Notes under the pieces: generated by a model
Told to the model about the DNA's origin: nothing
Databases searched by the model: none
The model's input: the letters and a program-made list of their open reading frames with translations, nothing else
Translations under genes and position numbers: made by a program
From: Octopus vulgaris
Lineage: Eukaryota
Assembly: GCA_951406725.2 (NCBI GenBank)
Contig: CATOCA020000086.1
Location: 1-6,765, forward strand
DNA length: 6,765 nt
Direction: 5' to 3'
In this document: positions 729 through 1,892 of the stretch, one piece after another
Layout of the letters: every line of letters begins with the position of its first letter
Position numbering within the stretch: the first letter of the stretch is position 1

Positions 729-1012
729 TGGCGTTTTACCCACAAATCCAGAAACAGACTGTCCTCGGGTATTGTATATGGATGTGATCTTTCATTGTTT
801 TCCCTTATTCCTATGTGAGTTATTTTCTGAGTATACATTGTCTGGAGACTTTTATTTGCAGTTGAAGAAATAGCCAAGTTTTTGGCTGCTATTTCGGAAA
901 AGTTCGGTGGTGTGGTAAGTGAATTCTTTACTTTACCATATTTTTATAAATTAATACTTCAAATACACCGTAAATGGTCTTTACATACCGAATACTGCTT
1001 GGCCGAATTTAT
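729..1012 (+). repeat. Third, 5'-truncated copy of the repeat: direct repeat of 1288-1574 and inverted repeat of 322-604
   Basis: tggcgttttacccacaaatcc...gaatttat occurs at both 729 and 1288 (offset 559). Confidence 0.96.
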
Positions 1013-1163
1013 TAATAATTAATTGATTCGACCCCCATTTTCTCATAACAATATAATGCTTTCTCTCCAAGAATTTAAACTGCAGTTTTACCTCTGTAGA
1101 AATGGAATGCTCTATGACTCACGTGGGCGGACAGGGAGAATAATAGATCTCATTCGTATTTTT

Positions 1164-1892
1164 GGATTCGCTAGTACTGGATGTCTGGCATAGTTTGTCC
1201 GATGTTACAGATATCGGACGGGTATGTTTGATTCTTAGTATTTTCAAGTCTAAATCAAAAGAAATCTCTGAGCTGATGAAGGAAAAGTGGCGTTTTACCC
1301 ACAAATCCAGAAACAGACTGTCCTCGGGTATCGTATATGGATGTGATCTTTCATTGTTTTTCCCTTATTCCTATGTGAGTTATTTTTCTGAGTATACATT
1401 GTCTGGAGACTTTTATTTGCAGTTGAAGAAATAGCCAAGTTTTTGGCTGCTATTTCGGAAAAGTTCGGTGTGTGGTAAAGTGAATTCTTTTACTTTACCA
1501 TATTTTTATAAACTAATACTTCAAATACACCGTAAATGGTCTATACATACCGAATACTGCTTGGTCGAATTTATATATATATATATATATATATATTGGC
1601 GCTGAACTAACAACAAGTGTGTTAACGTGTCTCTCCTAAATATTAAGGAAGTCCTTCCAGAGATCGATGTTATCAGAACCGAAATTGTCTGCAAAGCGAA
1701 TATAAGTGAAAGTACAAGTCACTGTATTTGAGAAGAATATTTTCGCTTTTGATATAGTATTTTGCAACTAGAACATAGTCGCGAATACACGTGTTAAAAC
1801 GCACGTGTGTTACCGAAATCGAAGTCAATTTTATTCTTCGTCTGTGAATCAACAAGACACAGGATATTTTCGTTTTTGATGTATATCTGCGT
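1164..1892 (+). repeat. Right arm of long inverted repeat (pairs with 1-728)
   Basis: Reverse-complement identity with 1-728 along its whole length. Confidence 0.97.
1267..1328 (+). ncRNA. Type I hammerhead ribozyme motif (minimal stem III); predicted cleavage after GUC at 1322
   Basis: Stem I UCUGAG(1267-72)/CUCGGG(1323-28), with 2 G-U pairs. Core CUGAUGA(1273-79). Stem II GGA/UCC plus GUGG/CCAC. Core GAAA(1310-13). Stem III ACA-GAC-UGU. Cleavage triplet GUC. Non-canonical feature: A.A (1280/1309) where the first stem II pair is normally R-Y. Confidence 0.8.

Follow-up and report, generated by a model that had tools for sequence, protein, structure and literature searches.

A young 560-nt retrozyme family of Octopus vulgaris with a Penelope-like insertion footprint

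A pair of head-to-head arms built from a 559-nt repeat with predicted hammerhead ribozymes is interpreted here as a TA-flanked, two-armed insertion of a 560-nt non-LTR retrozyme, probably written in trans by the reverse transcriptase (RT) and GIY-YIG endonuclease of a Penelope-like element (PLE), probably from circular RNA. We put the probability of this reading at about 0.75. That PLE machinery moved the retrozyme is very probable, whereas a circular template is only slightly to be preferred to an uncut linear one. Throughout the family the insertions carry a Penelope-like footprint, namely (TA)n, head-to-head arms and alternative fixed 3′ ends. The window, i.e. the whole stretch of DNA analysed, is an entire contig of 6765 bp, and searches were run over the 2.8-Gb, 227-contig genome.

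The locus and the 560-nt family

The sequence GAAACAGACTGTC occurs on the plus strand at 751–763 and 1310–1322, with CTCGGG directly after each copy, and also on the minus strand at 583–571. The predicted cleavage sites, 763 and 1322, are spaced by 559 nt, and the monomer between them (764–1322) is numbered m1–m559 below. A direct repeat relates 729–1012 to 1288–1574 (96.9% identity), and 1–728 is the reverse complement of 1164–1892 (98.1% identity). The junction 728/729 corresponds to 1288, which lies within the GUGG strand (1287–1290) of outer stem II; because the junction cuts this stem, the upstream ribozyme copy is without the 5′ strand of stem I, CUGAUGA and the base of stem II. The features along the window are as follows.

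1–301, minus: mirror copy of flank A, reaching the contig start; unique among the loci studied
302–321: (TA)n at the 3′ end of the left arm
322–728, minus: inverted left arm of 407 nt (m401 to m249), facing the right arm head-to-head
566–624, minus: second complete hammerhead (predicted), in the inverted arm, with a 1-nt loss in loop II
729–1574, plus: right arm of the insertion, 846 nt or 1.5 monomers, from m525 through one full unit to m249
729–768, plus: 5′-truncated ribozyme, with outer stem II, GAAA, helix III, GUC (761–763) and the 3′ strand of stem I
764–1322, plus: monomer B′-D-C′ from cleavage site to cleavage site, 559 nt, predicted to be a highly self-paired rod
946–975, plus: zone a (m183–212), the family's main 3′-end (priming) zone, predicted to be an unpaired AU loop; unused by the window insertion
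1013–1163, plus: segment D, the part of the monomer that occurs once in the window
1046–1060, plus: zone b (m283–297), the family's second 3′-end zone, predicted to be unpaired; unused by the window insertion
1268–1327, plus: complete type I hammerhead (predicted), GUC at 1320–1322
1429–1478, plus: hairpin and downstream motif, kept in diverged sister families (62–74% identity over B)
1575–1596: (TA)n at the 3′ end of the right arm, presumably the target microsatellite
1597–1916, plus: flank A, end piece of an unrelated repeat of more than 1.8 kb, outside the retrozyme

The two arms join with neither overlap nor gap. Both end at the minor site m249, and they have in common an allele at m485 that is private to them. 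Three substitutions and the loss of 5 nt are confined to the right arm, while the left arm has lost a single base in homopolymers four times. The hairpin and motif at 1429–1478 is a possible RT-recognition signal.

Flank A (segment A; L035–L038) is the end of an uncharacterised repeat with 114 candidates, whose copies start just after TA-rich tracts. No other inverted locus mirrors its immediate flank, the one match found (55 nt, 85%, at L014) being unrelated, and a genome search placed the junctions 728/729 and TA/A in the window contig alone. Transduction of flank A from the 3′ side of a donor locus was considered and rejected, as the assembly holds no donor junction. The mirrored flank is by a narrow preference an assembly artefact (a haplotype misjoin or read fold-back at the end of a tiny contig) rather than a real secondary duplication. 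Whichever its origin, 729–1574 is a normal arm of the family. On the minus strand of the window lies, from 2430 to about 6500, a frameshifted LINE with pieces of an APE endonuclease and an RT (Pfam Exo_endo_phos_2 and RVT_1). It is unrelated to the retrozyme, ends in a 10-nt repeat and (TA)256 at 1917–2429, and has what we take to be a CR1/Jockey-like look.

B′-D-C′ is the true monomer of a young, non-coding 560-nt family of several hundred repeats. Segment D is joined to B′ in 76 of 105 other loci and to C′ in 59 of the 105, with both junctions in one arm in 46, and start-to-start periods at other loci are 558–562 nt. Tandem arrays exist in the genome: 18 of 165 arms carry two to four complete ribozymes, and the longest arm has 2014 nt (3.6 units). 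The earlier note had seen two GUC sites 559 nt apart and an inversion junction that removed CUGAUGA by cutting the upstream stem II, had taken B′-D-C′ for a monomer and had proposed a search for arrays; all of this agrees with what was found. Of the observations that were to count against that note, a segment D unconnected to B′ elsewhere and a lack of arrays, neither was made. The 559-nt spacing at the locus is best read as a record of more-than-unit copying.

Similarity searches with C′B′ and with D gave 1605 first-look candidates and 256 candidates respectively, of which 40 were scored in each case, and a second motif had 296 genomic matches against 0 for its control. The 106 distinct loci that were mapped are not a random sample, as similarity, the ribozyme pattern or a motif at m123–156 had guided their choice. 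Divergence, taken from 30 loci, was 0.49% between units of one arm, 0.51% between opposite arms and 2.26% between loci; 15 locus-private alleles were common to several units (8 of these across arms) against 57 that were single. This implies one template or one donor per insertion, and on its own does not establish a circle. The signature of A-to-G editing was absent, with 2 A>G against 6 T>C among the shared private alleles and 9 against 7 among the single ones.

The GC content over 601–1600 is 0.31–0.40, i.e. below 50%. The longest frame of the plus arm is 95 aa from stop to stop, and no coding capacity is apparent. No PLE protein match lies within the element itself and no RT or GIY-YIG ORF is joined to it in cis at the loci examined, the few tblastn matches to PLE proteins being separate neighbouring elements; LTR-type direct terminal repeats were found in none of the mapped loci. 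The family is not an autonomous PLE. Its testable sequence features place it among the metazoan non-LTR retrozymes of the type I hammerhead class, a known kind of element. With the retrozymes described in PMC7229834 and bioRxiv 10.64898/2026.07.22.740005 (here and below, published work is cited from its accessible parts) it has in common non-coding tandem units with a type I hammerhead each, a GC content below 50%, a self-paired monomer and the presence of PLEs in the same genome. Its unit is longer than the 170–400 nt of the 2020 invertebrate set (PMC7229834) and falls inside the 51–972 bp of the 2026 survey (bioRxiv 10.64898/2026.07.22.740005).

A sister retrozyme family (L082–L100, e.g. L098, L085 and L088; 2060 candidates) has a unit of about 600 nt with 64–67% identity over B, its own hammerhead with a long loop II and a palindromic helix III, and the same 3′-end region as m292. 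At L143:1–2653 a perfect array of ~533-bp units with an internal inversion adjoins a member of the 560-nt family.

The predicted ribozyme and the monomer fold

The hammerhead at 1268–1327 comprises stem I (CUGAG/CUCGG), CUGAUGA, an A·A at the base of stem II, GGA/UCC, a 3 × 3 loop, GUGG/CCAC, GAAA, a palindromic helix III (ACAG-A-CUGU) and GUC. The pattern is not due to chance, since its core has 252 exact matches in the genome and the reversed control has 0. Core and three helices are near-invariant among 60 full copies. Covariation was analysed on 12 variants hand-picked from the 252 matches: 97.5% of the cells were paired and 5 of 10 pairs had double changes, a result matched by 0 of 500 shuffles. 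Because the core and some of stems II and III were already set by the search pattern, informative covariation is limited to stem I and one pair of stem II, and the changes concerned come from four diverged sequences. Four further diverged hammerheads (L131–L134) keep the A·A at the base of stem II and have compensatory changes in stem I.

An Rfam scan gave no hammerhead family at E ≤ 1; its top match, MIR5998, was far below the gathering score and was dismissed as a reflection of the inverted repeat. In 30 loci the ribozyme seemed to show added conservation (0 of 34 columns polymorphic, p 0.04); this was discarded as evidence, as it was lost in 98 loci, where 3 of 40 columns were polymorphic, all of them loop positions (p 0.79).

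Cleavage at GUC by the family's hammerhead is predicted from this fold. It may be weak, since the A·A replaces the direct G10.1–C11.1 stack and the active fold is computed to lie 3.5 kcal/mol above the ensemble in isolation (3.7 kcal/mol in the circle). In PLEs the hammerhead commonly carries one additional base after position 9, and its helix III is palindromic; both features are present in the 560-nt family. Such ribozymes are thought to be active as dimers (PMC4209133). In the axolotl HHR_Amex2 there is a U·U at the base of helix II, which the mismatch of the 560-nt family recalls; cleavage by that ribozyme is weak in the monomer and good in the dimer (PMC7229834). Eight of nine frog retrozymes tested did not cleave (bioRxiv 10.64898/2026.07.22.740005). 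The A·A itself and the long interrupted helix II set the family apart from the retrozymes described in the accessible parts of these sources.

In the model the monomer is self-paired with its ribozyme accessible. The circular form folds at −154.3 kcal/mol (z −5.7, 40 shuffles) with 66% of its bases paired, and the linear form has z −5.84 (100 shuffles). The predicted structure is a closed rod, with the monomer ends paired across the cleavage site. Contigs from 4 of 24 sequencing runs, these four being guessed to be RNA, cover the monomer and read through 1322, although assembled contigs cannot show ends, strand or circles. In three of these runs a contig begins at 1086 next to a TA flank, as would be expected of a single genomic copy lying within a host transcript, or of DNA.

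Insertion anatomy and the template

At the 106 loci, 55 of 108 clusters are head-to-head and none is tail-to-tail. A TA run of at least 8 nt is found within 40 nt of 147 of 160 outer 3′ ends. These ends fall at m185–206 in 76 cases, at m284–294 in 40 and at m249 in six, and none falls at the cleavage site; the two main zones hold 116 of the 160. Zones a and b, which were delimited after the data were seen, are predicted to be unpaired (0.80 and 0.86 against a mean of 0.36) and to form AU loops at the tip of the rod. The two arms of one insertion almost never use the same zone. Among the 55 two-armed insertions both arms ended in the same main zone once, against 12.1 expected, and one arm ended in each zone in 22, against 10.7 expected (P 2e-5). 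The 3′ ends lie in AU runs continuous with the (TA)n flank, a hint of priming by microhomology; a target-site duplication cannot be read inside (TA)n.

The 5′ side of the arms bears on the template. Read-through was counted on 84 arms on C1–C5 picked by the m123 motif, a set with two loci beyond the listed range and a slight bias toward ribozyme-bearing arms. Of the 52 that reach the cleavage site 49 run past it, and the 3 that stop there compare with 2.1–4.0 expected, so that 5′ ends do not pile up at this point. A cut linear monomer as template was rejected on these grounds, which leaves a circle or an uncut multimer. Truncations at the 5′ end are about twice as frequent at m47–m97 (22 of 78 arms stop within these 50 nt), where the predicted long rod begins; possibly this excess is an RT pause.

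Penelope-like helpers and the route of insertion

A search for GIY-YIG domains with PF01541 gave 6136 candidates, of which the best 150 were scored; 16 of these have a 781-aa open frame. The 781-aa protein has RT and GIY-YIG domains and a CxxxxCxxC linker, which fits the CX2-5CxxC given for Neptune elements (PMC8557442). A second family, with a 775-aa protein, is very young, as 148 of 148 scored matches have 100% protein identity over 257 aa. In both of these young autonomous RT + GIY-YIG families the copies have two fixed 3′ end points, 32 and ~41 nt apart, with (TA)n next to them, and in the 775-aa family both fully fetched inverted pairs use a different 3′ end for each arm. The two families thus bear the same insertion scars as the retrozyme, and by this analogy the scars point to a PLE partner.

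The earlier note had proposed that the monomer is mobilised in trans by a PLE, which might be recognised by a C′-B′ repeat in common. The insertion anatomy fits PLE machinery, as proposed, but no such repeat was found: by blastn, a B-segment profile and a motif matrix, none of three PLE families among the best 150 of the 6136 candidates, compared by pLTR for the 781-aa and 775-aa families and by 3′ region for the third, shares sequence with the monomer. Apparent retrozyme matches near PLEs (L046, L065 and L079) turned out to be separate retrozyme-like insertions in adjoining TA tracts. A resemblance of the 3′ end of the 781-aa PLE to the retrozyme hairpin motif failed the matrix test, as 125–216 of 1000 shuffles were as good.

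The 775-aa PLE (L219–L228) has long terminal direct or inverted repeats, and its pLTR has a hammerhead-like motif with a U·U at the base of stem II and, in L219, a C at core position 4. The 781-aa, Neptune-like PLE (L069–L075 and L229–L233) has an upstream ORF of up to 479 aa and a pLTR of 456–504 nt with a degenerate hammerhead-like core only. Close relatives of the PLE protein (P0029, P0040, P0060 and P0074) carry the label of proteins from bacterial symbionts of bivalves; these are probably host DNA in metagenome bins.

A link between retrozymes and PLEs was proposed in 2020 (PMC7229834) and argued from homology in 2026 (bioRxiv 10.64898/2026.07.22.740005). In the latter work 24 of 57 Xenopus families had a counterpart among annotated TEs, in nearly every case a PLE, whereas the 560-nt family has no pLTR homologue among the three PLE families. 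The likeness lies instead in the insertions. Neptune and Naiad elements show partial tandems, an inverted 5′-truncated copy, a bias for (TA)n and alternative 3′ ends (the 'tail') (PMC8557442; PMC4209133); unlike them, the 560-nt family has no RT or GIY-YIG ORF in cis, and its main 3′ ends are ~100 nt apart rather than 30–40. With the Anolis Poseidon PAc (PMC11167929) it has in common internal initiation at two sites, an AT-rich target, cutting and extension of both strands, a predicted dimer, and copies that do not end at the ribozyme cut. The start site of PAc has no homology to its target, whereas the ends of the 560-nt family fall in AU runs that merge into (TA)n, and the 560-nt template would be a non-coding RNA supplied in trans. 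For retrozymes, the accessible parts of PMC7229834 and bioRxiv 10.64898/2026.07.22.740005 describe neither head-to-head arms nor a preference for TA targets nor a pair of internal 3′ ends that exclude each other. No paper on the 560-nt family or on two-site priming of retrozymes was found in a literature search of partial coverage, and the supplements of PMC4209133, PMC7229834 and the 2026 preprint may list relatives.

These observations can be accommodated in a cycle of four steps. Donor arrays with at least two whole ribozymes would be transcribed, and the ribozymes would cut, probably as dimers through the palindromic helix III, after which a host ligase would close the 560-nt circle. The PLE protein would then nick both strands of a (TA)n tract and prime internally on the AU-rich loops of the RNA, each DNA end being primed at a different loop. 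Copying would continue past the cleavage site and give arms of up to 3.6 units, joined head-to-head, the step that is seen as anatomy.

Several other accounts have to be weighed against this cycle. A satellite or minisatellite amplified by unequal crossover, in which the hammerhead-like motif is incidental, would explain the near-identical tandem units within a locus, and local amplification of retrozymes is discussed by Li et al. 2026 (bioRxiv 10.64898/2026.07.22.740005). The copies are, however, spread over many contigs, mostly with fewer than two units. They have the hallmarks of reverse transcription, in that 3′ ends are fixed and 5′ ends variable, TA lies at the flanks and paired arms are head-to-head, so that a satellite origin is largely refuted and very unlikely. 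The palindrome 1–1892 might also be taken for a DNA transposon of foldback or MITE type, bounded by terminal inverted repeats of 728 bp, in which an internal duplication gave rise to the 559-nt period, given that the outer arms are 98.1% complementary over 728 nt, flank A included. Such a structure is refuted at the level of the family by the unique junctions at the window contig and the unmirrored flanks at other loci, and as flank A occurs elsewhere without the retrozyme we regard it as extremely improbable. A third account, put forward in the earlier note, has the window locus free the monomer itself: a permuted hammerhead made of 1268–1290 and the upstream 3′ half would cut at 763 and the intact one at 1322. 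In a transcript of 729–1300 all 15 permuted pairs can form, with a mean pair probability of 0.64 and a cost of 3.7 kcal/mol, equal to that in the circle, because this stretch is a circular permutation of the monomer. A second route would be a double-hammerhead swap through the palindromic helix III, by analogy with a fold in PMC4209133. The permuted pairing is thus formable in the short transcript, but its mean probability falls to 0.01 in 729–1574 and is 0.13 after the cut at 1322, and if the inverted arm is transcribed too, the costs of the two folds rise to 105 and 178 kcal/mol. Release would need a transcript that starts either in the inverted arm or no more than ~35 nt ahead of 763, and an internal promoter anywhere in m1–m524 would start downstream of 763. 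The plus arm has one complete ribozyme, the other being on the opposite strand; by the two complete ribozymes that Li et al. 2026 take as the mark of an active copy, the family qualifies (18 of 165 arms) and the window locus does not. Release of a monomer from this locus is therefore unsupported and, as far as the folding model goes, unlikely, and the window copy is probably a product of the cycle and not a source.

The account closest to our own keeps the same family and the same PLE enzyme and differs in the template, which would be an uncleaved linear multimer from a homogeneous donor array, the ribozyme being a rarely cutting passenger derived from a pLTR. In vitro, a PLE RT cuts and extends both strands with internal priming at two sites; it uses uncleaved RNA, unprocessed RNA is its main substrate and hammerhead mutants are without effect on insertion (PMC11167929). 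These data support the priming model and also keep the uncut multimer alive. The longest arm, 2014 nt, is within the supply of a four-unit donor, the private alleles shared across units may stem from unsampled donors, and the contigs from the presumed RNA runs read through the cleavage site. Against this, arrays would only shrink in each round unless they were regenerated, and yet arms of three to four units are found in several subfamilies. Stem I covaries across diverged families, the monomer is predicted to be a closed rod whose ends pair across the cleavage site, and abundant circles are formed by related retrozymes of coral, mussel and axolotl (PMC7229834). A linear multimer is a real possibility, though not one we would call likely.

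Returning to the circle, a more specific and tentative form of this reading, which we hold to be possible rather than probable, is that a PLE dimer acts on one ribozyme-made 560-nt circle. At each of two adjacent, unpaired AU loops at the tip of the rod one of the cut DNA ends would be primed, the circle would be copied by rolling circle in both directions, and the helper would recognise shape and target microhomology, with no pLTR sequence shared.

The copy in the window is itself unremarkable and its left end is possibly misassembled. What the 560-nt family adds is an insertion record that can be counted: the polarity of the arms, the TA target, a pair of internal starts that exclude each other within one insertion, and arms that continue past the cleavage site. 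A single genome offers both a young RNA family and two intact candidate enzymes, and the question of whether a circle or an uncut multimer is copied becomes directly testable. If a PLE dimer does prime on two loops of one circle, these insertions would be a genomic record of how an animal retrozyme moves, and would also explain the origin of the inverted tandems and 'tails' of PLEs.
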